55,630 nucleotides of DNA from a virus. The DNA is taken from IMG/VR virus record IMGVR_UViG_3300045988_032220, one strand, 5' to 3'. How positions within the stretch are numbered: the first letter of the stretch is position 1; every line of letters begins with the position of its first letter. Shown here piece after piece: positions 1,510 through 55,630 of this stretch. Made by a program: the position numbers and the translations under genes. Below the pieces are notes generated by a model that was given only the letters and a program-made list of their open reading frames with translations, was not told the DNA's origin and did no database searches.

Positions 1510-1526
1510 TGCTCTGTTCTCCCTTC

Positions 1527-2783
1527 TTACTGGAATGCGCCGCTGATGGCTTCGATATAGCCGCCGGTGCCGGATGCACCGCGGCTGACGGAAACGCGGA
1601 AGTTGAACGCTGCGCCGTTGGTCGCCGTGCTGTTGGTGAACACAATGTTCACGCCCTTCTTGACTTCGACCGTTGCATCCTGCCAGACCGGCGACGGGTC
1701 GTTGGCGTTGTTCGTGACCTCGACCTTGAATGTGGCATCATCGGGGATGCTGCCGGTCACCTGCAAGACCGCCACGGTAATGTCACCGTCCACGGCCAGT
1801 GGGGTGGTCAGCGTCACGGTGGCGCTGGTAACGCTCTTGGTGAACGTAGCGCTGAGGCTGGTGCTTTCCTTGCCGTCGCTGGCCGTGATCTGGATGGTGT
1901 GGTTGCCGTTGAGGATGCGCCGGAAGCCGTCGGCGGTACTGCCCTGCCCGAAGGTCAGTGCAGTACCGCTTGCAACGCCGGTTCGGGTGGCGGTGGTCTT
2001 GCCGTCCAGCTTTTCGGTGACGGTCAGGGCATCGCCGTCGGCATCGGTAACGGTGTAGCCAAAGTTGAATGGCGCGTTCTTCTCTCCCAGATTCGTGGAG
2101 CTGGCGTTGATGGCCGGGGCAGTGTTGGTGCTGACCGTGCCGTCGTCAGAGACCACGAGTTCAGAGGGAAGTACAAAAGCGGGGCGAACACCGTAGGTGT
2201 AGTAGCAGTACCAGTAGTCGTTGGAACCATCAGACTTGACGCCCCAGACGGGGCTGCTGCTGCTGGTGTTCGGAGAGCGCAGCCACCATTCGGCAGCGCT
2301 GCTGCCGTTATAGGCGATACGCTTGCTGTTGCCGCCGGAGCCACTTCCGAAATAGTCCAGCTTTGCGCCATCTTTCGGGAAATAGCCGTTGTCGCTGGTC
2401 GTCCAGCCGACCTCGTAGCCAGACAGTAAGAACACTTTGGTGGAAAGACCATTCGCGCCAGTAGCAAGGCTGCCACCAGAGCCAGTGCCGTTCTGATACG
2501 GAATTTTCACCTGTTTGATTGCCGCCCGAATTTCGGAATCAACCAGATTATAGAAAGTGCTGTTCAGGTAGGAATGGATGCTGGAATCCTTATAGGAGTT
2601 GCTGTTACCGAACGTGCTAGTTGTGTAAATGTCCTTCATCACGACCCAGACACCGTTGCAGCTTGCATCATAGGCGCTGCTGGGCAAGCCCTGATGCACG
2701 ATGATGAAGTCTTTGGCCGCACCGTTGACCTTGATCTTGACGATACTGCCAACGGCCTTTGTGCTCAGTTTTACGTTTGCCAT
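1527..2783 (-). CDS. DGR target protein 1 (418 aa): N-terminal ligand-binding domain carrying VR1, followed by Ig-like/beta-rich C-terminal region
   Basis: Start ATG at 2783 is preceded by AAGGAGGTAACA; the ORF-track start at 2894 would overlap the RT. Contains VR1, encoding AAEWWLRSPNTSSSSPVWGVKSDGSNDYWYCYYTYGVRPA. Confidence 0.9.
   Translation of the reverse strand: MANVKLSTKAVGSIVKIKVNGAAKDFIIVHQGLPSSAYDASCNGVWVVMKDIYTTSTFGNSNSYKDSSIHSYLNSTFYNLVDSEIRAAIKQVKIPYQNGTGSGGSLATGANGLSTKVFLLSGYEVGWTTSDNGYFPKDGAKLDYFGSGSGGNSKRIAYNGSSAAEWWLRSPNTSSSSPVWGVKSDGSNDYWYCYYTYGVRPAFVLPSELVVSDDGTVSTNTAPAINASSTNLGEKNAPFNFGYTVTDADGDALTVTEKLDGKTTATRTGVASGTALTFGQGSTADGFRRILNGNHTIQITASDGKESTSLSATFTKSVTSATVTLTTPLAVDGDITVAVLQVTGSIPDDATFKVEVTNNANDPSPVWQDATVEVKKGVNIVFTNSTATNGAAFNFRVSVSRGASGTGGYIEAISGAFQ
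2178..2298 (-). repeat. DGR variable repeat VR1 (121 bp)
   Basis: Aligns without gaps to TR 4207-4327 (offset 2029). There are 12 mismatches, all at plus-strand T in TR (A on the coding strand). Confidence 0.93.
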
Positions 2784-2803
2784 TGTTACCTCCTTGCAAA
2801 AAA

Positions 2804-4033
2804 TCAGACCCACGGCAAAACGCCGATGGGCCTTGTATTCTGCGAGACGGCAACGGGCATAGCTTTGCGCTGCTTCTTGTAGATGCAGCGGCATTGCCGG
2901 GCGCGTCGCCGGTCTCGTGCGAGTTTATTCGAGTTGATTTTTCGGTGGATAGAAATTGTGCAGTTGAGCAATTTTTCCAGACGATCGGCGTACTGGCGGC
3001 GCAGTGCGTAGGTATCGCCGTGTGCAGCATGGGCATCCCATGCAAGGAAGCTACAAAGGATTTCTTCCTTTGTTACCTCACCCGCCGGGTATGCCTTTTC
3101 CCAATGCCTGATTTTGGCTTTCATCCGTTTGGCGCTGTCCCGACGCAGCTTTTGGACGACCGCGCCGGTTTCAGTCAGATACGAATGGAACCCCAGAAAA
3201 TCAATGCCGTTCCTCAGTGGGAAGATAGCCGTTTTCTGGTTCAGCTCCAAACCGTACTCGTCCATGAGCGCCCGCACATCCTTCAAGATGCACTGCAACT
3301 TCTGCTTGTCCGGGCAGATGATGTAAAAATCATCCATATACCGGCCATAGTATTTGATGCGGTACTTTTCTTTGATGATGTGGTCGAACTCATCCAAAAA
3401 CATGAGGGCGAAAAGCTGGCTGGTCTGATAACCCAGCGGCAGACCATCTTCCATCACGTCGATGTAGATGCAAAGCAGCTCGTAGATACGCGGGTCAACG
3501 CCGCGCTTGTCCAGAACCACCTTGAGCTTTCGTTTCAGCTTTTGGTGATTGATGCTGGCGAAGAAGTGCCGGACATCGCCTTTCAGCACCCAGCCGTCTG
3601 CGCCGCGCCCACTCCGGCTGTAGTAGTCCACCATGTGGGTTTTCAGGCGCATCAGGCCGTCGTCCGTGCCTTTGTCCTTCTGGCTGGCAAAGCTGTCCCG
3701 GATGAAGCTCTTGGTCAGGACTTCATACAGGATGTTATCTACCAGCGCGTGCAGCACCACTTTGTCCACGAATGCCGGTGCGTGTACAACGCGCTTCTTC
3801 GGCTCATAAACATAGAACACTTCAAAGCGGCTCGGCGTGTAGCATATCTGCTGCCGGATGTCCCCGCCCGGCTGCCGTACACTGCGGACGGCCAGCTTGC
3901 GGGACAGCTTTTCGGTACAGGCCAAAGCGCTGGCCTCATACTGGATCGTTTTGCTCTTACTGCGCTTTCCTTTTCGGGCTTCGAGGTACGCATTGTAAAG
4001 CGTCTCGAAGCTGCACAGTTCTTCGTATGTCAA
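2804..4033 (-). CDS. DGR-type reverse transcriptase (409 aa)
   Basis: YMDD box (YYGRYMDDFYII) and LGYQTSQ, which matches the (I/L)GxxxSQ signature typical of DGR RTs. Also IRDSFASQKDKGT. Located immediately downstream of TR. Confidence 0.95.
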   Translation of the reverse strand: MTYEELCSFETLYNAYLEARKGKRSKSKTIQYEASALACTEKLSRKLAVRSVRQPGGDIRQQICYTPSRFEVFYVYEPKKRVVHAPAFVDKVVLHALVDNILYEVLTKSFIRDSFASQKDKGTDDGLMRLKTHMVDYYSRSGRGADGWVLKGDVRHFFASINHQKLKRKLKVVLDKRGVDPRIYELLCIYIDVMEDGLPLGYQTSQLFALMFLDEFDHIIKEKYRIKYYGRYMDDFYIICPDKQKLQCILKDVRALMDEYGLELNQKTAIFPLRNGIDFLGFHSYLTETGAVVQKLRRDSAKRMKAKIRHWEKAYPAGEVTKEEILCSFLAWDAHAAHGDTYALRRQYADRLEKLLNCTISIHRKINSNKLARDRRRARQCRCIYKKQRKAMPVAVSQNTRPIGVLPWV

Positions 4034-4067
4034 ACTTGACCCTCCGCTGGTTCGCTGTTGCGGTAGT

Positions 4068-4137
4068 GGGCTGCATCCCCGCAGGGATGGCCCACCTCAG
4101 CGGGATGTGTTTATCACTTGCCTGCATCGGCAAGTGA
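4068..4137 (-). ncRNA. Structured TR-RT spacer of the DGR RNA (two strong hairpins)
   Basis: Perfect 9-bp stem tcacttgcc/ggcaagtga (4114-4122 / 4129-4137). Bulged 10-bp stem gggc..catccc/gggatg..gccc (4068-4093). Confidence 0.5.
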
Positions 4138-4206
4138 CGGGATACGGTTTCCTTTGGCTGTTGCACTGCTTTCGGCAAATGCCTACTCGTCTCGCAGATC
4201 AGCCGG

Positions 4207-4327
4207 AGCGGGGCGAACACCGTAGGTGTTGTTGTAGTTCCAGTTGTCGTTGGAACCATCAGACTTGACGTTCCAGACGTTGTTGCTGTTGTTGGTGTTC
4301 GGAGAGCGCAGCCACCATTCGGCAGCG
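4207..4327 (-). repeat. DGR template repeat TR (121 bp)
   Basis: Coding-strand translation AAEWWLRSPNTNNSNNVWNVKSDGSNDNWNYNNTYGVRPA with 11 AAC codons. It is the invariant partner of VR1 and VR2 and is not in a credible ORF. Confidence 0.93.
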
Positions 4328-4368
4328 TCAGAATATAAACCGTGCCCCTATTGCAAAACAGTTTCCTG

Positions 4369-4959
4369 TTATGCCGTTTTCTGCTCCTGCTGGGCAAAGA
4401 CGGCCCGAAGTGCTTTGACAAGCATTTCAAGCCGTTTCTTCTCTGCTTCCTGCCGGAGATTTTCTGCCCGGCCACGTTCAGACTTGAGCCACTTCATGGC
4501 CGGGTATTTTACATCCGTGATCTTCTTTGTCCAGATACCGGCTTTCTTGGTGCTGATGATACCATCCTCCGTGCAGAGGGTCAGATATTCTAGCAGCAGA
4601 GAACAGCCGTCCACGACCTCACCGATCTTTTCAATCCGCTTGTCGTACTCCGTGGCGAAGTTCACGTTGTTGGCCGCATGGGCATCCAGCAGAATCTTCT
4701 TAGCCGTTTCCCGGATGTCCCTGCCGTAGAGGTTGAAGGTGCTTTTCGTAAAGCCCTCTTTCTCCCTCACATCAAGGGCATGGACAGCGGTTGTGCAGAC
4801 CTGCTTCATTTCGCGGATGTCCTCAAGCGCAGCGGCTTTCTGAAATACCTTCCGGGCATCGCTCCGGCTGATGTCGTCCGAAACGATGCGGGTCGCCCTC
4901 TGGGTATACCTCAGCAGCTCCCGCGCTTTATTGCCAACCAGAAACGGTTGTTCAGCCAT
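4369..4959 (-). CDS. avd: Avd-like DGR accessory protein (196 aa, helical, basic C-terminus)
   Basis: Lies immediately upstream of TR on the same strand. Predicted helical with a basic tail (KWLKSERGRAENLRQEAEKKR). Larger than canonical Avd (about 120-130 aa). Confidence 0.55.
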   Translation of the reverse strand: MAEQPFLVGNKARELLRYTQRATRIVSDDISRSDARKVFQKAAALEDIREMKQVCTTAVHALDVREKEGFTKSTFNLYGRDIRETAKKILLDAHAANNVNFATEYDKRIEKIGEVVDGCSLLLEYLTLCTEDGIISTKKAGIWTKKITDVKYPAMKWLKSERGRAENLRQEAEKKRLEMLVKALRAVFAQQEQKTA

Positions 4960-4960
4960 A

Positions 4961-5353
4961 TCAGAACTCCACCCTCGCCTGATCTGCGTTCCACACGCCG
5001 GTGACGGTCAGGCCGTCAAGGCTGCTGAACGTGGCGCTGAACGGGTTCTTGGTGACGTTCGTGCCGAACTTCAACTCGATTGCCTTAATGCTGGCATTCA
5101 TCGCGGCCACGCTGGCGCGGATGTCGCCGTGTGCATTCTCTGCGGAGTTGTGGGCATCGACGGCAGAGCTGATTTTCTGGTCGGTCTGAGCCTTGGTGTA
5201 TGCGTCCACCGCCGGACGCTGCGATTCAGACAGCTTACCATCCGCATCCAGCGTTGCCACGCCGCCGGGGGCACCGGCCTGTTCTGTTTTCAGATAGCTG
5301 GATTCATCGTTCGACACGCCCGGCACGGCGACATTCACGTTTCCATATGCCAT
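4961..5353 (-). CDS. Tail-fibre-associated protein (130 aa)
   Basis: The motif GGVATLDADGKLSESQRP resembles a motif common in phage fibre proteins. Translationally coupled to the avd-like gene. Confidence 0.6.
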   Translation of the reverse strand: MAYGNVNVAVPGVSNDESSYLKTEQAGAPGGVATLDADGKLSESQRPAVDAYTKAQTDQKISSAVDAHNSAENAHGDIRASVAAMNASIKAIELKFGTNVTKNPFSATFSSLDGLTVTGVWNADQARVEF

Positions 5354-31888: not shown

Positions 31889-32048
31889 CAGCTCGCAAGA
31901 TGGGATTTGAACAGCTCATCTTGCAATGATTTTACCAGTTTCCGCCGGTAAAGTCAAGCGGACACTTTGCAAGGGCTGCACCGCTCAACAAAGCAACCCA
32001 TGCCCACCACCCCGCCGGGGTGAATCAAAAACAAAGGAGATCGAGAAC

Positions 32049-32461: not shown

Positions 32462-32526
32462 CCGGATACCTTGACGGGCCGCACCACGAAAAGCGACCCG
32501 ATCCCACCACCCCGGAAGCATCCGGG
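32462..32526 (+). repeat. Intergenic repeat, type A copy 1 (core plus second hairpin)
   Basis: CCGGATACCTTGACGGGCCGCACCACGAAAAGCGACCCGATCCCA followed by CCCGGAAGCATCCGGG. Confidence 0.85.
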
Positions 32527-33091: not shown

Positions 33092-33154
33092 CCGGACACC
33101 TTGACGGGCCGCACCGTAAAGCGACCCGATCCCACCACCCCGGAAACATCCGGG
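33092..33154 (+). repeat. Intergenic repeat, type A copy 2
   Basis: CCGGACACCTTGACGGGCCGCACCGTAAAGCGACCCGATCCCA followed by CCCGGAAACATCCGGG. Confidence 0.85.
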
Positions 33155-33652: not shown

Positions 33653-33714
33653 CCGGATACCTTGACGGGCCGCACCGTAAAGCGACCCGATCCCATCCAC
33701 CCGGCCCCGCCGGG
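33653..33714 (+). repeat. Intergenic repeat, type A copy 3
   Basis: CCGGATACCTTGACGGGCCGCACCGTAAAGCGACCCGATCCCA followed by CCCGGCCCCGCCGGG. Confidence 0.85.
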
Positions 33715-34668: not shown

Positions 34669-34675
34669 CACAAAA

Positions 34676-34742
34676 CGGACACCCCAGCAGGGCCGCACCG
34701 CTCAAAGCGGCCCCGCCCCACTTCCCACCGGCACCCCGCCGG
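34676..34742 (+). repeat. Intergenic repeat, type B copy 1
   Basis: CGGACACCCCAGCAGGGCCGCACCGCTCAAAGCGGCCCCGCCCCA with a perfect 7-bp stem GGGCCGC/GCGGCCC, followed by CCGGCACCCCGCCGG. Confidence 0.85.
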
Positions 34743-35280: not shown

Positions 35281-35333
35281 CCGGATACCTTGACGGGCCG
35301 CACCGTAAAGCGACCCGATCCCAGCCGAAAGGC
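35281..35333 (+). repeat. Intergenic repeat, type A copy 4
   Basis: CCGGATACCTTGACGGGCCGCACCGTAAAGCGACCCGATCCCA followed by GCCGAAAGGC. Confidence 0.85.
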
Positions 35334-36287: not shown

Positions 36288-36293
36288 TAAAAG

Positions 36294-36361
36294 CGGACAC
36301 CCCAGCAGGGCCGCACCGATTCAAAGCGGCCCCGCCCCATCTTCCCGGCATAAATGTCGGG
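36294..36361 (+). repeat. Intergenic repeat, type B copy 2
   Basis: CGGACACCCCAGCAGGGCCGCACCGATTCAAAGCGGCCCCGCCCCA followed by CCCGGCATAAATGTCGGG. Confidence 0.85.
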
Positions 36362-39681: not shown

Positions 39682-40515
39682 TCAAGGCCGGTTCCTCCTG
39701 TTCTGCTGCATCCCAGTCTCTTTGCGATATAGGCGCACGATCAGGTGCCGGGTGTTGTTGCCGGTGATTATGGGTTCGCAGTAGTGCAGGGTGTATCCGG
39801 GGTACATCTTCTCCCAGAATGCACGATCTTCCAGACGGTTCTCGCAAACATCTTTCAGCTTGGTGCGGCTCATTTTCCCATCGTTCGGGCGGGGCATTTT
39901 CGGCGGTTTCAGCCCGCGGCTCTGCCGCCAATGGCGCTTGCACCTCACATTCTTCATGATGTACTTTGCAAGGCTCGTGATGTAGCCATGATCGAAGTGT
40001 AGAGGTTCGCAACGGGCCATTCCGCGCCCGCTCCACGCTTCCTCTACCATTTCACGGGTCAGACCGTAAACGCGCTGCATAATGACATGGTGATGGTGCT
40101 TTCCCACCCACACCCCGTCAACATACGTCGAGTATTCATGCACGACGATCCACTTCGGGTGCCGAATGTCTTTTTTATCGCACATCCGGTATAGCTTTTT
40201 CATGGCGGCGGAAAAATCCTTATCCACACGCTTTGTGTCCGCCGGGTCGGGCCGGTGTTCATCGTCATAGGTGTATGTAACAGAATAATCGCTCTTGTGG
40301 AAGTTGCGCTGAACCAACAGCTCTAAATACCGTCCACTTTTTCGCAAATTGTACGCTTCCTTCGCAATGGAGCTTGCCAGCTCTTTTTTCTTGCGGGTGC
40401 TGGCCTTGTGCTGCTGTTCCGTGATCTCGAAAAAATCCACCTGCATGGTGTCAGCCGTGGCATAGTCTTTGCCGCAGATAAATTTTTGCTCTCGTACTCT
40501 GAATCCCGCGGTCAT
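39682..40515 (-). CDS. HUH-type rolling-circle replication initiator (Rep)
   Basis: HUH-like GKHHHHVIM and Tyr motif SLAKYIMKN. ATG at 40515 is preceded by AAGGAGG; the alternative is GTG at 40542. Confidence 0.65.
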   Translation of the reverse strand: MTAGFRVREQKFICGKDYATADTMQVDFFEITEQQHKASTRKKKELASSIAKEAYNLRKSGRYLELLVQRNFHKSDYSVTYTYDDEHRPDPADTKRVDKDFSAAMKKLYRMCDKKDIRHPKWIVVHEYSTYVDGVWVGKHHHHVIMQRVYGLTREMVEEAWSGRGMARCEPLHFDHGYITSLAKYIMKNVRCKRHWRQSRGLKPPKMPRPNDGKMSRTKLKDVCENRLEDRAFWEKMYPGYTLHYCEPIITGNNTRHLIVRLYRKETGMQQNRRNRP

Positions 40516-40828
40516 ACTCTCCACGTCCTCCTTTCCGTACACGTCATGGAATTTTCTGAATCTTGAACCACAAACACGAGAAGGGAACGATGCAGAGGAA
40601 CAACACCGGGCCGCGTTCCCTACGATCCTGCTTCCGGCAAGCCATCAGAACGCTGCCCTCGTTTTCCCTCTGCACTCCCTTTCCCCGCCGGGGGAAAGCT
40701 CCTGTTTTTCTCTGATTTCTCAGAATGTCCCTTAGTTTAGCTCCGATATACAAGCCCCTTGCCGCCTCGTCAGGGCGGCAATTTAACGACGGACGCTCTT
40801 TATATATAAGGTAAAGGGCTTGTCTTGC

Positions 40829-40981
40829 TTATTTCAGCAGGGCGAATTTGAACCAATCCGGCAGGTCGGATGCTGCAATAAAATACTTTACCACCAGCAC
40901 CACGGCAAGAATAATCACCGGTGCCAGCAGGTACAGCCAGCCGATAGCGTAAGCGCCGAACTCACTTTTCTTCTTTTTCAT
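40829..40981 (-). CDS. Small membrane protein (50 aa)
   Basis: MKKKKSEFGAYAIGWLYLLAPVIILAVVLVVKYFIAASDL has a single TM segment. Confidence 0.4.
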   Translation of the reverse strand: MKKKKSEFGAYAIGWLYLLAPVIILAVVLVVKYFIAASDLPDWFKFALLK

Positions 40982-41117
40982 CACTATCTTCCCTTCCTTC
41001 CCACACAGGGCAGCTATCTTCCGGGTCTGTGAAATCCGCCCGATGCTCAGAATTTCCATTGAAGCACACCCATGAAAAGTTATCATGCCATGCGCAGGTG
41101 AAACACTCTTTTTCCAT
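40962..41117 (-). CDS. Small Cys-rich protein (51 aa)
   Basis: Hand-translated MEKECFTCAWHDNFSWVCFNGNSEHRADFTDPEDSCPVWEGREDSDEKEEK. Its ATG overlaps the upstream stop (TGATG). Confidence 0.4.
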   Translation of the reverse strand: MEKECFTCAWHDNFSWVCFNGNSEHRADFTDPEDSCPVWEGREDSDEKEEK

Positions 41118-41581
41118 CACTCACGTTCCTCCCAGTTCCAGCAGGAAGCTTCCCGGCCTGTCACAGGCTGAGAATGATGTTTGTTGAAACACGTCCCGTC
41201 CCGCAAATGCCACCTGCAAAATTCACAGCTTTTGTGTAAAGTGACTTTTGCGCCGCACTCTGGGCAGTGCTTAAACGTGTACTCGCAAAGTTCTTTCTCC
41301 CCGTCGTCCGGGTCGATTTTGATTTGCTTCCAGTCCTCAACGTGAATGCCGCACTTGTGGCAAATAAATTCGTCGCAGTCTACGTAGTCCCGGTTCTCGT
41401 TGTATGTCAGCGGTTGCAGGCTCTCCGGGGCAATGGTCGGTTCGGCATTCAAACTGCCCTCGATCATCTGCACTACACTGGTTTTGATTTTCCCGTGTGT
41501 CAGCTCCCCTTTCAGTGCATACTCTATGTTCTTGAGCACCTGCATGAAATGGTTTGCATCAACCAGACGTTTTTCTTCCAT
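41117..41581 (-). CDS. Zinc-ribbon containing hypothetical protein (154 aa)
   Basis: CHKCG...CPECG...CEFC motifs. Confidence 0.6.
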   Translation of the reverse strand: MEEKRLVDANHFMQVLKNIEYALKGELTHGKIKTSVVQMIEGSLNAEPTIAPESLQPLTYNENRDYVDCDEFICHKCGIHVEDWKQIKIDPDDGEKELCEYTFKHCPECGAKVTLHKSCEFCRWHLRDGTCFNKHHSQPVTGREASCWNWEERE

Positions 41582-41804
41582 TTTCTTTTCCCGCTTTCTT
41601 TCTGGGCGTTCGCTTCTTCTTGGGCAAATCCGGTATTGTTACCACAACATCCCTTTGTTTCTCCATTTCCGCCGGGATTGCCTCAACCAGACTTTTGAAT
41701 TTTTGCAAGGTTTGAACCTCCGTCGCCGCGAAAATGAACTGCGCCAGTTCTTCCGGTGTTCCCTGCTGGACGGAATGACCGTCCGGGTATGTTGTGATCG
41801 TCAT
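41559..41804 (-). CDS. Hypothetical protein (81 aa)
   Basis: ORF in operon. Confidence 0.5.
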   Translation of the reverse strand: MTITTYPDGHSVQQGTPEELAQFIFAATEVQTLQKFKSLVEAIPAEMEKQRDVVVTIPDLPKKKRTPRKKAGKENGRKTSG

Positions 41805-42292
41805 TTTTCTTCGCCTTTCAGTTTCAGTTCCACTTTCGGCATGGGCTGATCCGAACGGTTCATCGGTTCATAGAAATCGACCCACTGTCCACCCTCCGGG
41901 AAGTCGTGCCACGCAAGCGCGTACCGGATCGTCAGCCAAACGGTTTCTGCTCTGTATGCTTCTTTCATGGTTGTGTCGATAGATGCAGGCGGAACATTCT
42001 GTCTCCAAAGTGCGTCCATGCCCTGCCGCATCTGGTTACGAAGCCGCATACACTTGAGAAAATCCGCTTCGTGGTCTTTATGAAACTGCTTTCGTTCTTC
42101 GGTCGTGTGACACTGCTTTTCCATCTTGTCCACATAATCCCAGCAGCAAACCTCATTGGTGAAGTCCTCAAACTGGCCCATGCGGAACCGGAGGTATTCT
42201 TCGCACGCCTGCTTCACGGCCTGTGCTGTCTCCCGGCTCATGGTGATGGTCACGGCCTCAACCTCTGCCGGGGTCTTATTTTTTGTTACCAT
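41801..42292 (-). CDS. Hypothetical protein (163 aa)
   Basis: ORF in operon. Confidence 0.6.
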   Translation of the reverse strand: MVTKNKTPAEVEAVTITMSRETAQAVKQACEEYLRFRMGQFEDFTNEVCCWDYVDKMEKQCHTTEERKQFHKDHEADFLKCMRLRNQMRQGMDALWRQNVPPASIDTTMKEAYRAETVWLTIRYALAWHDFPEGGQWVDFYEPMNRSDQPMPKVELKLKGEEK

Positions 42293-42301
42293 TCTGTCAC
42301 C

Positions 42302-42694
42302 TCAGCAAATCCTGACAGCCGGGGCACCGTAGCCATCCCGTACCAGAACCCCCTCTTTTTCCGTAAAAAACATTGTCGTCTTGAACGGAAAGTTTGCTCT
42401 GTCGATGCCAGCTTCGGCGGCAGCATCGGCCAGCATTTTGCACGGGCCGTAATCACTCCCGATGGAAAAGCCGAAAGTTTGAATGCTTTTCGCGTATTCC
42501 TCAATGCTTTTTGCCAATGCCGCCTTGAATGTGTTCAGCTGATCCAGCGTAACGCTCTGTCGCATCGTATCCGCAAGGAAGCACACTGCAACAGAGGTAA
42601 AGCTATCGTCTCCGTTGCTATGCGGCTGGTGATCCATCAGCTTTCCAGCCCACCAGCTGACTGCCTTTTCAATATCATCCTTTGCCAAAATCAT
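42302..42694 (-). CDS. Hypothetical protein (130 aa)
   Basis: ORF in operon. Confidence 0.6.
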   Translation of the reverse strand: MILAKDDIEKAVSWWAGKLMDHQPHSNGDDSFTSVAVCFLADTMRQSVTLDQLNTFKAALAKSIEEYAKSIQTFGFSIGSDYGPCKMLADAAAEAGIDRANFPFKTTMFFTEKEGVLVRDGYGAPAVRIC

Positions 42695-43077
42695 ACCTTT
42701 TCCCCGCCTTTCTTTTTCAGAGGTTCAGGCACCGTTTCATAATCCGGAACCTTGCCGCCCGGCCAGTCGTGCCGCTGGCTGCGTTCGTATTTCTTGACCA
42801 TTGCGGCCAGCTGAATAGCTTCCACCGCTGCGTGGATTGCCACATCATAAATGAGATTCAGGTGCTCCCGCTTCATGGGTTCGTTTCTCTTGACATCTCG
42901 CCACAGCCGGATTGTCAAGCCAAAGTGGAGCTTCCGCACCTCGTCTATCAGTTCGTCCAGTTCTTCCCGGATCACCGCATACCCTTCATGCGGACTTGCG
43001 AACATCCGAAAGCGGCGGTTTGCTGCCGCCAGCTCCTTCTTTGCCAGAGCACGGACATCTTTTGTGATAACGTCCAT
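42691..43077 (-). CDS. Hypothetical protein, possibly all-alpha MazG-like NTP pyrophosphohydrolase (128 aa)
   Basis: SPHEGYAVIREELDELIDEV resembles the MazG-type EExxE region. The resemblance is weak. Confidence 0.3.
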   Translation of the reverse strand: MDVITKDVRALAKKELAAANRRFRMFASPHEGYAVIREELDELIDEVRKLHFGLTIRLWRDVKRNEPMKREHLNLIYDVAIHAAVEAIQLAAMVKKYERSQRHDWPGGKVPDYETVPEPLKKKGGEKV

Positions 43078-43079
43078 GG

Positions 43080-43727
43080 TTATTCCTCCGCCCGGCTCTT
43101 GATTTCAGCCAGCAGATCATCCAATGGAACATCGGCGAGGCAAAACCCGGCTTCTCCTTCATCCTCGGTAGAGACCCAGAGTGTAGAGGGAAAGTACAAA
43201 GCGGGGCGAACACCGCAGGTGTTGTTGAAGTTCCAGAGGACGCTGGAACCATCAGACTTGACGAACCAGACGAGGCTGCTGCTGAGGGTGTTCGGAGAGC
43301 AATTCGGCGTACCGTAAGGCGTCGCCAACCACCACGGCGTATCTACCTTCGGGATCAGCCGCCAATACTTTCCATACTGACGCAGGGTCAACAGGCCGAT
43401 TCTGTATTCAACGGTTCCGTATTCGGTCTGTCCGGTTGTGTCCTGCAGGTCGATCTTGAACGGAATAAAAGTATCCAGCGGCGTACCCTTCTCGGTAAAC
43501 TCTGCCAGACAGTTACCCAGATACTTCATAACATCGCTCCGGCGCAGATCGTTGGGACACTCCGGGTCGTCACCATCACGGAACGGCATTTTCGTCCAAA
43601 TGTTCTTTGCCAGCACAAGGCAACCGTGTTCGTCTGCATCCAGCTTCACAAACTCCTTGCCCAGCGCCTTGAAGATTCCGCCGTTCTTCACATTGCCCAA
43701 TGTCGTGCTTTTCAAAATCTTGCTCAT
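43080..43727 (-). CDS. DGR target protein 2 (215 aa), early-region paralog of the VR-bearing domain
   Basis: Contains VR2, encoding SPNTLSSSLVWFVKSDGSSVLWNFNNTCGVRPA. Shares the WWL...GVRPA(L/F) scaffold with target 1. Confidence 0.85.
   Translation of the reverse strand: MSKILKSTTLGNVKNGGIFKALGKEFVKLDADEHGCLVLAKNIWTKMPFRDGDDPECPNDLRRSDVMKYLGNCLAEFTEKGTPLDTFIPFKIDLQDTTGQTEYGTVEYRIGLLTLRQYGKYWRLIPKVDTPWWLATPYGTPNCSPNTLSSSLVWFVKSDGSSVLWNFNNTCGVRPALYFPSTLWVSTEDEGEAGFCLADVPLDDLLAEIKSRAEE
43200..43300 (-). repeat. DGR variable repeat VR2 (101 bp, remote)
   Basis: Aligns without gaps to TR 4207-4307. There are 14 mismatches, all at plus-strand T in TR (A on the coding strand). Confidence 0.9.
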
Positions 43728-43745
43728 GGTCGTTTCTCCTTCTTA

Positions 43746-44387
43746 TTACTCCTGCTGCTCGGAATCCTTTTCGGCGTTCAAATCATCGAACGTCTGTTCC
43801 GATTCTTCCTGTTCACCGATGTGAGTTTCTGCCAGCATTGCAACCAGTTCTTGCAGCTTTGCTTCTGCGTAGTCCGGTACCGTATATGCCATAACGGCGG
43901 CTCGTACCCTCATGCCGTTCTTCACGACATAATAAACCGTTCCGTCGGTTTGTTTTCTCTGGTAATAGCGGATAAAACCGTTATTCTTAATTTCATCCTC
44001 CAGCGGCGCAAGGTGCGACTGACAGATAATGCCGACCATGTGGCGATCCTCGGTCACAAGCGGGATAAGGATTTCTCCACTGCAGTAAATACCGATGCCC
44101 AGTTTCTTCACTTCGACTTCATCCTTAATTGTGTCGTCAAGATTGAAACCCTGAAAATCAATTTTGTATGCACAGTCGAAGTCGTTGTAAACCACCTTTT
44201 CGATCATGGTATCCTCGCTGATTCCCAGCATAGCGCCCATCTGGTTGCGGTTCAGCGGACGCGGGAAACCGGTAGCGCAGTAAATCGCCGACGCAGTTCC
44301 AATGTAGAAATCATCACTCTCGTCGTTATGGAAAACATTGCAGACAAGCTGCCGCTTGACCATCTTTGTCAGCCCTGAAAGTTTCAT
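43746..44387 (-). CDS. Hypothetical protein (213 aa)
   Basis: ORF in operon. Confidence 0.6.
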   Translation of the reverse strand: MKLSGLTKMVKRQLVCNVFHNDESDDFYIGTASAIYCATGFPRPLNRNQMGAMLGISEDTMIEKVVYNDFDCAYKIDFQGFNLDDTIKDEVEVKKLGIGIYCSGEILIPLVTEDRHMVGIICQSHLAPLEDEIKNNGFIRYYQRKQTDGTVYYVVKNGMRVRAAVMAYTVPDYAEAKLQELVAMLAETHIGEQEESEQTFDDLNAEKDSEQQE

Positions 44388-44590
44388 CTTCTGACCACCT
44401 CCACGTCCGGTTTTTCCGTTTCCCTAAACCTCGGATAAAAGGTCATTGCGCACATCCGTGCCTCACGGAGTGCTGCATCTGAGCTTTTTGCGTCCAGCTT
44501 GTACGGTAGCTGCATCTTGTTTTTCGTGTAGCTGTCAATGCCGAACAGCATGATGCTGAACTTTGCCATTTTCTGCTCCTTTCTGCTCAT
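44384..44590 (-). CDS. Hypothetical protein (68 aa)
   Basis: ORF. RBS AGAAAGGAG lies upstream of the internal ATG MAKFS. Confidence 0.5.
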   Translation of the reverse strand: MSRKEQKMAKFSIMLFGIDSYTKNKMQLPYKLDAKSSDAALREARMCAMTFYPRFRETEKPDVEVVRR

Positions 44591-44647
44591 TTTCTTTCGG
44601 TGGGCACTTCCGGGCTTGAACCGGGCGGGGCCTATTCCCTATGCTCA

Positions 44648-44679
44648 TATAAAAAGGAGCCGCCGCTCTGGGCGGCTCC
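44648..44679 (-). terminator. Intrinsic terminator after the SPFH gene
   Basis: Minus strand reads GGAGCCGCC-CAGAGC-GGCGGCTCC (perfect 9-bp stem) followed by TTTTTATAT. Confidence 0.7.
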
Positions 44680-44685
44680 AAAAGA

Positions 44686-45621
44686 TCAGTTGATGCCGTT
44701 GATAATGGGGATGCTGTTACCGTCGCCAACATAGGCAGGCAGTTCACCGTTCCAGCGGGATTCCACGTCGGTGATCTTGTAGTATTCCAGCAGGTTGCTG
44801 TTCAGACTGTCGTTCAAGGCGCGGTTTGCTTCCGCCTTTTTCTCTGCAACGTACAACTCTGCGTCCGCTGCAACCTTAGACTTTTCCGCTTCCGCATTGG
44901 CTGCGATCAGGTCAGCGTCCGCCGTGGCCTGTGCTTCGACACGGCGCTTGTCGGCGTCAGTCTCGGCTTTTTCCTTTTCCTGCTGGGCCTTGACCTTTGC
45001 TTCCACCGCATCGGTAAAGGTATCAGTGAAGTCAAAATTGGTTACGCTGATATACTGCAGGTCGATGTTGTACTGTGCCAGCACTTCCCGCAGTTTCGTG
45101 TCCATCTGGGAAGCGACTGCATCCCGGTTAGAAATCAGGCTGCTTGCATCGTAGTGGGCAACTACAGCTTTCACCGTTTCAAGGATACGGGGAGTAATCA
45201 GGGTGTCCTCATACTTTTTGCCGACCTCTTTGTAGATGGTCATTGCATTTGCCTGATTGATCCGGTAGCCAACCGCCACACTGGTGGAGACTTCCTGAAT
45301 GTCAGAACTGAACGCTGACAAGTCCATGCTCATTTCCTGAACACGGTTATCCATCTTCACGATGGACTGCCACGGGGCCTTGAACACCACACCTGCGTCC
45401 TTCGTGCCATCCTCGACTTTGCCAAAGGTTGTGACGATGCCGGTATAACCGGTAGGAACATAGGACACACAGGAAATGCCGATAAAAATGACGGCCACCA
45501 CCGCCGGGATGATTGCAGCTCTTTTTGCATCATCCGAGAAAATCAGGACTGCCAGCGCAATCAGTGCAAACAGTGCGCCGATAATAAAAAGAATCATGTT
45601 TCCTCGCTTTCGCTCATGCAT
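44686..45621 (-). CDS. SPFH/band-7 (stomatin-prohibitin-like) membrane protein
   Basis: N-terminal TM segments, then YTGIVTTFGKVE...VFKAPWQSIVKMDNRVQ and a long Ala/Glu/Lys coiled coil. The start may be the internal ATG at 45597. Confidence 0.8.
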   Translation of the reverse strand: MHERKRGNMILFIIGALFALIALAVLIFSDDAKRAAIIPAVVAVIFIGISCVSYVPTGYTGIVTTFGKVEDGTKDAGVVFKAPWQSIVKMDNRVQEMSMDLSAFSSDIQEVSTSVAVGYRINQANAMTIYKEVGKKYEDTLITPRILETVKAVVAHYDASSLISNRDAVASQMDTKLREVLAQYNIDLQYISVTNFDFTDTFTDAVEAKVKAQQEKEKAETDADKRRVEAQATADADLIAANAEAEKSKVAADAELYVAEKKAEANRALNDSLNSNLLEYYKITDVESRWNGELPAYVGDGNSIPIINGIN

Positions 45622-45691
45622 TTATGTACGGGCGAAAGCTACGGTGGGGTCTGATCGTGGGAGGTTCGGTTTCCACCATCTTCCTCTCATG

Positions 45692-52851: not shown

Positions 52852-52980
52852 GCAACGTGTCGTTGCTATCATAATAGCTTTGCTCCTTTCAAATGTCAAC
52901 AATACGTTGCATTTTCAGCGTATTGCACAGTTTCTTCGCAACATTTTGTTTCCTCTGTTGAAAAAGCAACAATCAGTTGC
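52852..52980. promoter_or_regulatory. Lysogeny-switch operators: three GCAAC-N5-GTTGC-type palindromes
   Basis: GCAACGTGTCGTTGC at 52852-52866, TCAACAATACGTTGC at 52896-52910 and GCAACAATCAGTTGC at 52966-52980. Confidence 0.65.
52871..52899 (-). promoter_or_regulatory. Early lytic promoter (minus strand)
   Basis: Minus strand has TTGACA (52899-52894), a 17-nt spacer and TATTAT (52876-52871). Confidence 0.65.
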
Positions 52981-52986
52981 TATAAT
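52958..52986 (+). promoter_or_regulatory. Repressor/maintenance promoter (plus strand)
   Basis: TTGAAA (52958-52963), 17-nt spacer, TATAAT (52981-52986). The spacer is operator 3. Confidence 0.65.
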
Positions 52987-53644: not shown

Positions 53645-55258
53645 ATGGCAAAAAGAAAATTCAACAAGGGCGGCGAGGTTCGGCTGGTCGCCTATTACAG
53701 ATACAGCGGCGGCAGCGGGCAGACTGAGCAATCCATTGAGGGCCAGCGCCGGGACTGCGAGACCTACGCCCGCCTGCACAATATGACCATCCAGAAAGAA
53801 TATGTGGATCGTCACATCAGCGGCAAGACCGATGATCGTGCGGCATTCCAACAAATGATTGCTGACAGCGACAAGGGCGCATTCGATATGGTAATCTGCT
53901 GGAAAACAGACCGCTTCGCCCGGAACCGCTATGATTCTGCCGTGTACAAGAAGCGCCTGCGCGACAACGGTGTTGAGATCGTCTACGCCGCTGAATCCAA
54001 CATTGCCGGTGCGGAAGGTATCATCATTGAGGGCGTGATGGAAGCGCTGGCCGAATACTACTCCGCCGAGCTGGCCGAGAAGATGCGCCGCGGCATGAGG
54101 GAAAGCGCTCTCAAAGGGCAAGCCATCAGCCGTTGCCGCGCCCTTGGCCTGAAAACGGACGAGCGCAAACGGTTCGTCATTGATGAAAAGACCGCACCCA
54201 CTGTGCGCTTTATCTTTGAGCATTACGCCGCCGGGGAATCTGCCATGTCTATTGTTGAACAGCTCAACACTAAAGGACTGCGCACCAGTCAGGGCAACCC
54301 CTTCAACAAGAGCAGCATTCCCCGGATCATCCAGAACGAAGCCTACCGCGGCGTGTATGTCAGTAAATCGTATGACGTGCGCATTGAAGGAGCCATTCCG
54401 GCCATTATCGACAATGAACTTTGGGAGAGGGCACAAACCATGTTGAAATTGAACCGTCAGCTCAAGGCAAAGAATGAACCGAAAGCGGACTATATCCTGT
54501 CCGGCAAGCTTTACTGTTCCTGCGGTTCCCTTATGCGCGGCATGAGCGGGCACAGTGCCACCGGCGAGGTCTACCGCTACTACACCTGCCCCAACAAGGA
54601 CTGCCGCCTGCGGAACATCCCGAAGGACGATCTGGAAGGAAAAGTCATGCAGTCCATCGTGGATCACCTCTTGCAGCCGGAATCTATGGAAGCACTGGCC
54701 GAAGCTATGGTCGAGGTGCAAAAGGCCGACGCTGAAAAGCCCAATGCCGAACGTGTAGCCATCGAACAGAGCCTTGCCGATGTCCGCCGCCGCAGTAAAA
54801 ACATTTTGGACGCCATTGAAAACGGCACCGCCAATGCGCAGCTGTGTGCCCGTCTGGATGATCTGACCGAACAGGAGCAGACCTTGAGCTTCCAGCTTTC
54901 TTCTCTGGAAAAGGAGAAGCCTGTTGTGTTCACAAAAGAGCAGTACCTTTTCCTGCTGGAACAGTTCTTGATGGAGCCGTCCGAGCGCACACCGGAGTAT
55001 GGTCGCCGTCTTGTTAACACTTTCGTAACAAGTATGGTAGTTAGCGACCGTGAACTGGTTATCAATTTTAATGTTTCTGACGAAACCGTTAACAAAAACA
55101 AAAAAACATCCCAGACAAACTTACAAAAAGAAAGTTCGTCTGGGATGCGTCTGGTCCACCTTGCACATCAACAAGCGAACTATTCCCTTTATGCGGCTTC
55201 CGGCTACTTTTCACTGGTTGAACACCAATTTTCGGCCCGTTTGTGGCGCACCGCATAA
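53645..55258 (+). CDS. int: Large serine recombinase (integrase)
   Basis: N-terminal resolvase catalytic region VAYYRYSGGSGQTEQSIEGQRRD. Also a recombinase domain, a zinc ribbon (CSCGS...YYTCPNKDC) and a coiled coil. Confidence 0.9.
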   Translation: MAKRKFNKGGEVRLVAYYRYSGGSGQTEQSIEGQRRDCETYARLHNMTIQKEYVDRHISGKTDDRAAFQQMIADSDKGAFDMVICWKTDRFARNRYDSAVYKKRLRDNGVEIVYAAESNIAGAEGIIIEGVMEALAEYYSAELAEKMRRGMRESALKGQAISRCRALGLKTDERKRFVIDEKTAPTVRFIFEHYAAGESAMSIVEQLNTKGLRTSQGNPFNKSSIPRIIQNEAYRGVYVSKSYDVRIEGAIPAIIDNELWERAQTMLKLNRQLKAKNEPKADYILSGKLYCSCGSLMRGMSGHSATGEVYRYYTCPNKDCRLRNIPKDDLEGKVMQSIVDHLLQPESMEALAEAMVEVQKADAEKPNAERVAIEQSLADVRRRSKNILDAIENGTANAQLCARLDDLTEQEQTLSFQLSSLEKEKPVVFTKEQYLFLLEQFLMEPSERTPEYGRRLVNTFVTSMVVSDRELVINFNVSDETVNKNKKTSQTNLQKESSSGMRLVHLAHQQANYSLYAASGYFSLVEHQFSARLWRTA

Positions 55259-55341: not shown

Positions 55342-55630
55342 TTAGTGGAGATACCTTGCCAATTCAGATGCAACAAAGCCTGCGATCACTGCCGCAATGA
55401 CTGCCCACCAGAGTTTGTTTCCAAATACTCCGGGGGCTTTTTCCAGCGCGGTCAAGCGGTCGTCCTGCTTCTTGTTCTGTGCCGTCACAACTTCAAGGCT
55501 CCGGTTTGTGGTTTCGAGTTGCTGGATGGTCAACTTGATATTGGTGTTCATGCCGTTTACTGCATCGGTCAGCTTCCCCAGCTCGTCCAGCCGGTGGGTG
55601 TTGCTCTGTGCACGGTTTTCGACCGCTGTC
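55342..55630 (-). CDS. XhlA-like lysis-associated membrane protein (C-terminal 95 codons in this copy; 5' end continues at 82-110 after circularisation)
   Basis: Coiled-coil N-terminal half and a C-terminal TM segment (LWWAVIAAVIAGFVASELA). Lies downstream of the holin, like PBSX xhlA-xhlB-xlyA-type cassettes. Confidence 0.6.
   Translation of the reverse strand, partial: TAVENRAQSNTHRLDELGKLTDAVNGMNTNIKLTIQQLETTNRSLEVVTAQNKKQDDRLTALEKAPGVFGNKLWWAVIAAVIAGFVASELARYLH
55550..55630. repeat. Right copy of 81-bp terminal direct repeat (identical to 1-81)
   Basis: Same as above; an ORF reads in frame through the junction. Confidence 0.95.

Follow-up and report, generated by a model that had tools for sequence, protein, structure and literature searches.

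The single DGR of a circular, Toutatis-like Faecalibacterium phage very probably, as judged from its sequence and those of its relatives, has a functional second target that is not adjacent to it: besides VR1 in the neighbouring tentaclin-type gene (target 1), it appears to serve VR2, which lies in a gene of the early/replication block (target 2). An earlier sequence-only reading of the window, the 55,630-nt stretch of viral DNA analysed here (IMG/VR record IMGVR_UViG_3300045988_032220), had proposed such a genuine, non-adjacent second target, and this is borne out by the restriction of mismatches to TR adenines, by the variation among relatives and by the way in which VR2 follows the TR resident in each genome. 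The novelty that it implied does not hold, as the same gene was reported in 2024 as the second VR target of FP_Toutatis (bioRxiv 10.1101/2024.10.15.618418) and of phage Lelie (PMC11792537). The second VR of this phage genus is thus already published and the role of the protein is what remains; here we tentatively prefer, at a little short of an even chance, a cytoplasmic ligand binder expressed with the early genes over a canonical tail receptor-binding protein. The additions made here are an A-restricted match between FP_Brigit gp06 and the Brigit TR, and the early/replication siting of small DUF6273 genes across the lineages examined.

Positions 1–81 of the window recur exactly at its other end, and this terminal direct repeat closes the genome to a circle of 55,549 bp. 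The TR and VR2, which the linear window sets 38.9 kb apart, are therefore separated by only 16.5 kb (16,456 nt) the short way round, and the distance of 39 kb given in the sequence-only reading is an artefact of the point at which the circle was cut. The window carries one DGR that serves both targets, with an RT, an Avd and, between RT and Avd, an AAC-rich TR (Table 1). A perfect stem-loop in the spacer between TR and RT, TCACTTGCC-GATGCA-GGCAAGTGA, possibly belongs to the DGR RNA. Target 1 passes the Pfam threshold for DUF6273 (125.9 bits, E 1.9e-36), matches phrog_10993 (E 1e-129) and resembles, in its C-terminal part, the "tail fiber protein" of PDB 31he (E 5.6e-5); its residues 76–251 also match phrog_9958 (E 1.7e-14), the family that target 2 matches over its full length (E 4e-78).

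Table 1. Features of the window relevant to the two DGR targets, in order of position on the linear 55,630-nt stretch.
Feature	Position	Strand	Basis or remark
Target 1 (N-terminal DUF6273, then C-terminal Ig-like/tail-fibre-like domains; "tentaclin"/Hoc-like type)	1527..2783	-	Pfam, phrog_10993 and PDB 31he matches
VR1	2178..2298	-	12/12 mismatches at TR adenines over 4207-4307; 4308-4327 same as TR
DGR reverse transcriptase	2804..4033	-	Pfam RVT_1 E 7e-19; phrog_1423 E 1.5e-122
Stem-loop, perfect 9-bp stem and 6-nt loop	4114..4137	-	in TR-RT spacer
TR	4207..4327	-	4207-4307 serves VR2, 4207-4327 serves VR1; in-frame translation RSPNTNNSNNVWNVKSDGSNDNWNYNNTYGVRPA; AAC-rich
Avd-type DGR accessory protein	4369..4959	-	phrog_3206 "Avd protein of DGR" E 1.3e-30
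Target 2 gene, 215-aa stand-alone DUF6273 (C-type-lectin-like) protein	43080..43727	-	ORF and translation; ortholog of FP_Toutatis gp24 and Lelie orf58
VR2 3' flank, alike to VR1 3' flank and unlike TR	43165..43199	-	repeat family D1, alignments; encodes conserved (A)LYFPSTLWVS
VR2 (target 2 codons 143-176, TR adenines in 19 of them)	43200..43300	-	14/14 mismatches at TR adenines
Strong terminator-like hairpin (9-bp stem, 8 G-C pairs, T-run)	44656..44679	-	consensus match only
Promoter-like site TTGACA-17-TATTAT (11/12 matches)	52871..52899	-	consensus match only
Divergent promoter-like site facing 52871-52899	52958-52986	+	consensus match only
Exact 81-bp copy of 1-81	55550..55630	+	marks circular or terminally redundant assembly; repeat family D4

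The alignment on which the sequence-only reading was built is reproduced in full. VR2 matches the TR without gaps over 101 nt, with all 14 mismatches at adenines of the TR coding strand; VR1 and VR2 together place 26 of 26 substitutions at TR adenines, and nine variable positions (4235, 4245, 4271, 4272, 4280, 4281, 4283, 4289 and 4292) are common to both. This span of the TR contains 31 adenines in its 101 nt, and VR2 is the same as the TR at all 70 remaining positions; the chance of adenine-only mismatches is 5e-9 for VR2, 1e-7 for VR1 and, for all 26 drawn with replacement, 5e-14. Three copies, the TR, VR1 and VR2, are the only sequences in the window that match the TR at >=60% identity. 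The repeat limits proposed earlier stand for VR2, where homology stops sharply at 4307, and need correction for VR1, whose homology extends 20 nt further 5'. On the 3' side VR1 and VR2 remain alike for about 35 nt in which the TR is unlike them, and over the 136 nt of repeat family D1 the identity of VR1 is 82% with VR2 and 75% with the TR. Read in the frame of VR2, 19 TR codons contain adenines, which occupy first and second codon positions (AAY design), so that mutagenesis never makes a stop codon.

A TR-like stretch in target 2 could in principle have arisen by ordinary paralogy or gene conversion between the two DUF6273 genes instead of by retrohoming, as both proteins carry the DUF6273 C-terminal motif and the 3' flanks of the two VRs are similar. 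This explanation can hardly be right, and we reject it because the substitutions occur solely at adenines (P ~5e-9). The identity outside adenines is 100% over 101 nt to a TR that is non-coding, and it is abrupt at both edges, whilst the remainder of the two target genes is not alignable by BLASTP; the A-restricted pattern is, furthermore, found again in Toutatis, Lelie and Brigit.

Evidence for the rewriting of VR2 comes from comparison across related genomes and contigs. VR2 is unique in each of 39 related genes whose flanks are 82–98% identical, with an entropy over these relatives of 1.23 bits at TR-A columns versus 0.19 at other columns, and 137 related proteins have 137 unique VR peptides between them, as against only 57 unique sequences outside the VR. 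The TR of the window has 15 differences from that of Lelie and Toutatis, 12 of them non-adenine. When VR2 is compared with its own TR, 14/14 (window), 13/13 and 15/16 mismatches are at adenines in these three genomes, whereas comparison with the foreign TR gives 22–29 scattered mismatches; outside adenines VR2 agrees with the TR type of its own genome, also where the flanks are 98% identical. The 121-nt TR is identical in seven of the nine IMG/VR contigs that match a TR-specific 33-mer. One contig, IMGVR_UViG_3300045988_031957, is identical to the window at 121/121 TR positions and has a VR2 unlike that of the window, with 11/11 mismatches at adenines; it terminates within VR2, and several further IMG/VR contigs break within the target 2 gene, at residues 135–167. 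The contigs of three relatives (L003, L028 and L040), whose VR2 is of the window type or similar to it, were not recovered by the exact 33-mer TR search; their TRs may differ by one base or be located outside the assembled part.

These sequence comparisons indicate that the lineage still uses VR2 as a target. It is improbable that VR2 of this genome is a fossil, that is, a former target no longer rewritten owing, for example, to inactive cis elements or an inactive RT. Reads from cultured Lelie lysate are without a variation peak at either VR (PMC11792537), some Toutatisvirus genomes retain both targets without a DGR (bioRxiv 2024.10.15.618418), and the canonical downstream hairpin was not found at VR1 or VR2, all of which would suit a fossil. 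A fossil would, however, keep the old TR type or gain non-adenine changes, and VR2 instead fits the resident type at 70/70 non-adenine sites, even though this type differs at 12 such sites from the one in genomes whose flanks are 98% identical. The RT, the Avd and the TR are, moreover, intact, and a contig with an identical TR has another VR2.

The 3' flank that VR2 has in common with VR1 is a candidate IMH-type directionality element. An IMH is made up of a GC-rich block with its flanking sequence, is located at the VR 3' end and differs from the IMH* of the TR. A GC-rich block, GGTGTTCGCCCCGCT, is common to the TR and both VRs, and in the adjoining ~35 nt VR1 and VR2 are identical at 24 of 35 positions in an ungapped manual count. 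This stretch encodes a conserved peptide, so that constraint at the DNA level and at the protein level are inseparable in it, and the similarity of the flanks could stem from the protein motif RPA(L/F)xxPSxL instead of from a DNA element. When the 136 nt beginning 16 nt before the VR 3' end were folded, no stable hairpin or cruciform was obtained 3' of the VRs (z-scores of DNA folding downstream of +0.43 for VR2 and +0.27 for VR1). A hairpin or cruciform downstream of the VR is a feature of BPP-1 and is not universal.

In the mechanism that we propose, the late-module Avd-TR-RT cassette (2804–4959, minus strand) would make adenine-mutagenised cDNA from the TR transcript, and this cDNA would replace VR1, in the tentaclin-type target next to the cassette, as well as VR2, 16.5 kb off on the circle. 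Entry at the 3' side would proceed via the common GC-rich block and the ~35-nt flank of both VRs, which is absent from the TR, and the 5' junction at VR2 would have to resolve inside only 8 nt of homology, GCTCTCCG. The outcome would be the rewriting of 19 codons on the β-hairpin surface of a stand-alone DUF6273 protein. Should target 2 be an early-expressed cytoplasmic binder, each new variant would be tried in the infection that follows.

Target 2 is 90–91% identical to its Lelie and Toutatis orthologs (tblastn). The WWL...SPNT...VW.VKSDGS...GVRPA motif that the sequence-only reading had recognised in both targets is confirmed by BLASTP, at 53% identity over residues 132–191. The direct match of target 2 to Pfam DUF6273 (PF19789) reaches 18.4 bits (E 0.002), covers the C-terminal 41 model positions only and lies below the 23.5-bit gathering threshold; most homologs of target 2 carry a precomputed PF19789 match, and RefSeq calls the Toutatis ortholog DUF6273. 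A phmmer search with target 2 gave no match among PDB sequences at E up to 10, and the family profile finds the N-terminal DUF6273 domain of PDB 9qa6 (hmmsearch E 8.9e-9). This entry is the ThomasA IgA protease of Thomasclavelia ramosa (PMC12402451), which has the motif WWLRTP...GVRPAFYLDS in common with target 2 and is the only solved structure found by both the family profile and the AF2 model; it differs in that the domain belongs to a secreted, sortase-anchored bacterial protease, for which DGR diversification is not reported.

The AF2 model of target 2, built on an alignment of diverse homologs (A5; pLDDT 90.1), consists of one domain and a C-terminal helix (residues 202–214), which is amphipathic and stands behind a disordered acidic linker. 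A first model from a shallow alignment of four subfamilies (A2) reached a pLDDT of 58.6, and its Foldseek matches to HIT proteins and kinases (E >1) were discarded as meaningless. With the A5 model, Foldseek finds DUF6273 proteins (E 1e-8) and DUF1566 proteins (E 7e-5), and it also aligns the model with 9qa6 in its N-terminal domain (E 2.7e-5, probability 1.00, TMq 0.52). Matches to C-type lectins are weak (LOX-1 and CLEC9A, TMt ~0.45, E ~0.5); the C-lec fold is assigned in published AF2/AF3 analyses (bioRxiv 2024.10.15.618418; PMC10743442). VR2 occupies residues 143–176 of 215, within the C-type-lectin-like domain and near the C-terminus, and in the model its 19 codons map to a β-hairpin surface. 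In a hydropathy scan neither target 2 nor any of 117 family representatives had an N-terminal signal peptide or transmembrane segment: three of the representatives have a 12-residue window above 2.0 in the first 45 residues, which in two cases covers the conserved first β-strands (G..F.VLD), and one has a 19-residue window above 1.8. The secreted binder suggested earlier is unlikely because of this absence of a signal sequence.

Target 2 does lie outside the virion module, as had been noted from the sequence, in a leftward block of early and replication genes. The genes around it, which include methylase, regulator and replication genes, are tightly packed; its four immediate neighbours have no Pfam domain and belong to PHROGs "unknown function" families only. 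A good Shine-Dalgarno sequence (AAGGAG) precedes the target 2 gene, whose stop is followed after 2 nt by the start codon of the next gene. The putative promoter at 52871–52899 is likely to start the leftward early operon that holds target 2, and the terminator-like hairpin is situated between an SPFH gene and the sub-operon of target 2. Homologous small DUF6273 genes are found in early/replication modules in each lineage whose gene context can be judged, namely in Toutatis-, Brigit- and nd4-like phages, where they bear a VR, and in two further metagenomic phage lineages. If target 2 does act early and inside the cell, such a design would be recurrent. Fusions to DUF3310 occur within the family, as do isolated ones to Dam and Rep domains.

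Several known systems resemble the one described here. A catalogue from 2017 already lists prophage DGRs with a second target that is not adjacent (PMC5758913). FP_Toutatis gp24 (YP_009797461) and Lelie orf58 (XAI97696) are orthologs of target 2 set in an early region of 97–98% nucleotide identity, and gene order, VR codons and the cassette layout (Avd-TR-RT-large target) are all the same, with a TR-VR2 distance of 17,480 nt reported for Toutatis versus the 16,456 nt of the window. In contrast, the DGR cassette of the window is only ~80% identical to theirs, its TR is of a different type and its VR2 is rewritten to it. Neither of the two papers gives comparative evidence of VR2 activity or discusses the early-module siting. 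In Roseburia phage Shimadzu, which is likewise a temperate gut Firmicutes phage with one DGR, a VR in an RT-adjacent tail gene and VR2 in the function-unknown orf43/44, both VRs were rewritten in sequencing reads, in vitro and in mice (bioRxiv 10.1101/575076).

Equivalent small second targets are also described for the gut phages nd4 and nd12 (Baykov et al. 2023, PMC10743442). Like target 2, nd4_tgt2 and nd12_tgt2 (234 and 294 aa) consist of a single DUF6273/C-lec domain with short flanking helices, have a VR at the 3' end that is shorter than VR1 and accompany a tentaclin-type first target; their tblastn identity to target 2 is ~30% (E 3e-13 and 4e-8). Target 2 has the features of the tgt2 type, to which the small targets of Lelie and CP11 also belong, namely a length of ~200–300 aa, a single DUF6273 domain, a 3' VR and a tentaclin-type partner on the same TR. 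nd4_tgt2 adjoins replication genes, and the neighbours of nd12_tgt2 are unannotated. These phages differ in belonging to myovirus lineages and in their C-terminal extensions, and nd12_tgt2 has an N-terminal DUF3310 domain that target 2 lacks.

The sequence-only reading took target 2 for a non-virion protein, as its gene position would suggest. An alternative, possible and on the doubtful side, is that target 2 serves in receptor binding or adhesion as a virion-associated protein, similar in function to Mtd of BPP-1 and encoded outside the structural module, which would dock through its conserved C-terminal helix or a partner protein and leave the DGR mechanism unchanged. Mtd (PDB 1YU0) also adopts a C-type-lectin-type fold, bears its VR close to the C-terminus and is likewise diversified by an Avd-TR-RT cassette with an AAC-rich TR; the DUF6273 fold of target 2 displays its VR on a surface hairpin, an arrangement seen in known adhesins too (PMC10743442). 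The same TR supplies the clearly virion-type target 1, a different VR2 in each related genome fits an arms race over a surface ligand that varies, and helix 202–214, with the motif P.DDLL.EI..R that also occurs in Brigit gp06 (31% identical to target 2), could act as a docking peptide. DUF6273 elsewhere occurs in extracellular or virion adhesins, including tentaclins, BFVD tail-fibre-like proteins and the N-terminus of the secreted IgA protease, and a receptor-binding role was favoured by all three earlier papers. However, in the lineages examined the homologs lie in early/replication modules and not in the tail module, and the domains fused to family members (DUF3310, and singly Dam and Rep) are non-virion domains. 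Mtd itself is a 381-aa protein with an N-terminal β-prism and β-sandwich for tail-fibre attachment, encoded beside the cassette in the tail module, whereas target 2 is a single domain from an early-module gene, without a β-prism, β-sandwich or Ig-like anchor; it has no sequence match to Mtd, which is also absent from its best 50 Foldseek PDB matches. No paper mentioning DUF6273, Toutatis or Shimadzu was found to report on the small target by proteomics of virions or by expression measurements.

We retain the early-expressed cytoplasmic ligand binder as the preferred reading. A more specific form of it, in which target 2 is non-virion, early and cytoplasmic and its DGR-randomised surface binds a variable intracellular or host ligand, such as a defence or takeover target, is rather unlikely as it stands. 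In this form, variants would be written at the late stage of an infection and put to use at the early stage of the following one. Lelie was spontaneously induced from a cultured strain, Faecalibacterium sp. L2-61 (PMC11792537), and the role of the protein is therefore directly testable.

A second VR by itself adds nothing new to DGR biology: phage DGRs with two targets, this very gene included, have been published before. The puzzle is that several unrelated lineages of gut phages encode, among their early/replication genes, a DGR-diversified, signal-less, single-domain lectin-like protein. Should this prove to be an adhesin of the virion, genes for receptor-binding accessories can lie at a distance from the tail module and would then be missed by structural-module annotation and by surveys that consider RT-adjacent targets only (for example PMC8144416). 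With an intracellular role, target 2 would be the first phage DGR target to act within the cell, and phage DGRs would gain a second arena beyond adsorption.

The core of the DGR template repeat (TR) is present in exactly three copies in an ungapped whole-window scan (repeat family D1), at 2171 (VR1, inside target 1), 4200 (TR) and 43193 (VR2, inside target 2, the gene for a 215-aa protein). Compared on the coding (minus) strand with TR 4207-4307, VR2 has 14 mismatches, 14/14 at TR adenines, and VR1 has 12 against the same segment, so that 26 of 26 differences are at TR adenines, with nine variable positions common to both repeats, as the sequence-only reading had proposed. Adenine makes up 31 of the 101 nt of the TR segment, and the chance of 14/14 falling on A is 5e-9. 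The VR1-TR match holds over the span given earlier, 4207-4307, but identity reaches 20 nt further 5', to 4327; the homology of VR2 to the TR ends abruptly at 4307. Both target proteins indeed contain the scaffold WWL..SPNT..VW.VKSDGS..GVRPA, with 53% identity over residues 132-191 (BLASTP), and BLASTP aligned nothing else between them outside these residues.

TR, VR1 and VR2 have GGTGTTCGCCCCGCT in common at their 3' ends, beyond which the VRs run TT(T)GTACTT(T)CCCTCT..ACTC..GGTCTCT and the TR runs CCGGCTGATCTGCGAGACGAG; the ~35 nt 3' of VR1 and VR2 are alike between the VRs and unlike the TR. This would be the arrangement expected for IMH, a candidate directionality element 3' of the VR, versus IMH*, its TR counterpart. 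Because this sequence also codes for the conserved peptide RPA(L/F)xxPSxLxVS, constraint on DNA and constraint on protein are inseparable here. DNA folding found no stable hairpin downstream of VR1 or VR2. The spacer from the TR to the start of the RT contains a perfect stem-loop (9-bp stem, 6-nt loop), which may belong to the structured DGR RNA that serves in priming. On the 5' side, GCTCTCCG is all that VR2 and TR have in common before they diverge. The first adenine beyond this block varies among relatives (A in 7, T in 19, C in 11 and G in 2), implying that the 5' junction must often resolve within <=8 nt.

Features of the phage genome and of FP_Brigit discussed in the text
Feature	Position	Strand	Details
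Target 1	1527-2783	-	DUF6273, E 2e-36; C-terminal part matches 'Hoc-like' phrog_10993 and a PDB tail-fibre protein
VR1	2178-2298	-	inside target 1
RT	2804-4033	-	RVT_1, E 7e-19; phrog_1423, E 1.5e-122
Stem-loop	4114-4137	-	
TR	4207-4327	-	between Avd and RT
Avd	4369-4959	-	phrog_3206, E 1e-30
RAGATH-5 copies	31958-32013, 32462-32513, 33092-33141, 33653-33702	+	
RAGATH-5 copies	34675-34727, 35281-35330, 36293-36346	+	
Target 2	43080-43727	-	215 aa
VR2	43200-43300	-	codons 143-176 of target 2
Strong intrinsic-terminator-like hairpin	44656-44679	-	GGAGCCGCC-CAGAGC-GGCGGCTCC then T-run
Divergent promoter-like pair	52871-52986		adjoins serine integrase
Serine integrase	53645-55258		
FP_Brigit VR	gp06 gene positions 427-498		
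FP_Brigit TR	L052 near + coordinate 6932		

An exact 81-bp terminal direct repeat (bases 1-81 and 55550-55630) shows that the record is a complete phage genome, circular or terminally redundant, of 55,549 bp. On a circle every long distance in the window has a shorter complement, and the ~39 kb earlier said to separate TR and VR2 is thus 38.9 kb on the linear window but only 16.5 kb the other way round. At the nucleotide level, the early region (40000-45640) matches Faecalibacterium phage Lelie (PP479942) with 98% identity and FP_Toutatis (NC_047915) with 97%, and the DGR cassette with target 1 (1400-5000; minus-strand order Avd, TR, RT, target 1) is ~80% identical to Lelie/FP_Toutatis and 95% to the unannotated virome scaffold MT835569. 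These values indicate a mosaic genome, in which the cassette was apparently exchanged at the tail-to-integrase hotspot of Egorov and Atkinson (bioRxiv 2024.10.15.618418), after which VR2 was converted to the type of the new TR. In target 1, residues 190-344 (VR end into the C-terminal half) match a PDB chain named 'tail fiber protein' (31he_AAA, E 5.6e-5), so the PHROG label 'Hoc-like head decoration' may mislead and target 1 may be tail-associated.

The most telling test of VR2 as a live target exploits this mosaicism. Fifteen positions separate the TR of the window from that of Lelie/Toutatis, and 12 of these are not adenines (as with AAGTCTGATGGTTCC in the window versus AACACCGATGGCTCC). 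Compared with the TR of its own genome, VR2 has 14/14 mismatches at A in the window, and 13/13 and 15/16 in the other two genomes; against the other TR type there are 22-29 mismatches, scattered across all four bases. Judged by these patterns, each genome's VR2 follows its resident TR. A VR2 scaffold of the window type is found where the flanks are 97% (locus L002), 89% (L040) and 82% (L028) identical, with a close variant in L003, whose flank is 98% identical; VR2 content therefore tracks the cassette and not the gene phylogeny.

Relatives of the 215-aa protein were collected from 45 IMG/VR loci, Lelie and Toutatis. VR2 is different in every one of the 39 aligned full-length genes and the remainder of the gene is conserved, mean column entropy within VR2 being 1.23 bits at window-TR adenine columns versus 0.19 at other VR columns. 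Likewise, 137 related 215-aa proteins contain 137 different VR peptides and only 57 different sequences outside the VR. A TR-specific 33-mer recovered nine IMG/VR contigs, seven with a 121/121 identical TR. One contig with an identical TR and the target-2 gene, IMGVR_UViG_3300045988_031957, has a VR2 unlike that of the window, with 11/11 mismatches at A, and terminates inside it. Several others (L037, L038, L041, L043, L044) begin or end within target 2, inside VR2 at residues ~135-167, as do predicted proteins (P0241-P0252), and many truncated cluster representatives stop at the same place, probably owing to assembly breakage at a hypervariable site. The 90%-identity clusters of the family hold thousands of distinct members (for example, P0050, 9,787; P0122, 33,878). 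Taken at the level of the lineage and not of the sampled population, the comparisons argue that retrohoming into VR2 is repeated and recent. Lelie in culture was reported without read-level VR variation (PMC11792537).

Target 2 is embedded in a minus-strand block (~52.4-38.0 kb) that encodes an HD phosphohydrolase, a peptidase/3D-like protein, DNA methyltransferases, an SPFH/prohibitin protein and unknowns, then target 2, followed by unknowns, a transcriptional regulator, a replication initiation protein, a resolvase-type endonuclease and a late-regulator-like protein, in agreement with the Toutatis annotation. It has a good Shine-Dalgarno, starts 18 nt downstream of the preceding stop and ends 2 nt before the next start codon. 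The terminator-like hairpin lies within the block, just upstream of the target-2 sub-operon, which suggests that expression of target 2 may need read-through or antitermination. Gene content, hairpin and promoter-like pair bear out the placement in an early, non-structural operon. Elsewhere, in the plus-strand block at 31.9-37.8 kb, seven copies of RAGATH-5 (RF02685, typed 'ribozyme'; repeat families D2 and D5) score 58-69 bits against an Rfam gathering cut-off of 50; each occupies an intergenic leader, with a start codon following some 40-90 nt downstream, and this structured RNA precedes nearly every gene of that operon.

The protein matches phrog_9958 (unknown function) end to end (E 4e-78) and falls below the Pfam DUF6273 threshold (18.4 bits, cut-off 23.5). 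An AF2 model built from a diverse alignment (pLDDT 90.1, pTM 0.81) is a single globular alpha/beta domain, in which VR-encoded residues 143-176 form strands close to the C-terminus, followed by a disordered acidic linker (191-194) and a terminal helix (202-214). In Foldseek, the model resembles 9qa6, the IgA peptidase of T. ramosa, in its N-terminal DUF6273 domain (E 2.7e-5, probability 1.0); the family profile also matches 9qa6 by sequence (E 9e-9). Weaker matches are the C-type lectin-like domains of LOX-1, CLEC9A and echicetin (TMt ~0.45), and BFVD yields phage proteins with DUF6273 (E 1e-8) as well as DUF1566 proteins (E 7e-5). Hydropathy detects no signal peptide or transmembrane segment in target 2 or in 117 family representatives, making the secreted form suggested earlier unlikely.

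Clustered at 50% identity, the family is large, with 600 clusters (E up to 1e-3), most of them of 180-250 aa. FP_Brigit gp06 (L051, NC_047909, 3948-4559), 31% identical to target 2, belongs to the Brigit early operon, directly behind the HTH regulators and ahead of exonuclease, RecT and replisome organiser genes. It contains a 72-nt match to the Brigit TR with 7/7 mismatches at adenines (P = 2e-5); this A-restricted VR is a new detail, the original description naming only the Hoc-like target (PMC5883640). The 'CP11' prophage (PMC11792537) may resemble Brigit in type. As with target 2, the small second target nd4_tgt2 has an early placement, adjoining DNA polymerase III, SSB and DnaC genes, and more distant homologs are flanked by methylase/MazG genes on one side and DUF551/RecU/SSB genes on the other, or are surrounded by small early genes. 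DUF3310 fusions are occasional in the family (6 of 54), and Dam, a Rep domain, an esterase and a few further domains occur as fusion partners in single cases; some of these fusions could be products of gene calling. Small DUF6273 proteins with an N-terminal DUF3310, a phage domain of unknown function, include P0126, P0129, P0155, P0163, P0186, others and L056 (phage nd12) 2803-3687. Two distant small homologs, P0403 (L058/L059) and P0415 (L060/L061), are identical on 16 and 10 contigs respectively, with no visible hypervariability and no RT called within 10 kb. The DUF6273 scaffold may be older than DGR targeting, with a function independent of diversification.

Many phage-associated DGRs have one adjacent and one non-adjacent target in the same prophage (Wu et al., PMC5758913), and both VRs of Roseburia phage Shimadzu are rewritten at read level (Cornuault et al., bioRxiv 10.1101/575076). 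Phages nd4 and nd12 each carry a tentaclin and a small DUF6273 'tgt2' (Baykov et al., PMC10743442, where the words 'early' and 'replication' are never used). The Faecalibacterium prophage paper (PMC11792537) reported two VRs in Lelie, as well as the large/small DUF6273 target pair, and Egorov and Atkinson (bioRxiv 2024.10.15.618418) placed a second VR gene of FP_Toutatis 17,480 nt from the TR, this gene being core (98.8% of 173 genomes) and the DGR present in 68%. A second DGR target was thus already known for this genus. We found no tests in these publications of where the small target protein acts, a receptor-binding protein being their authors' guess. The data support a real trans DGR target in the early region, and the position of its gene would make a non-virion protein plausible. 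Novelty is low, and the remaining interest lies in a lectin-like protein, DGR-diversified and signal-less, whose gene recurs in early modules.
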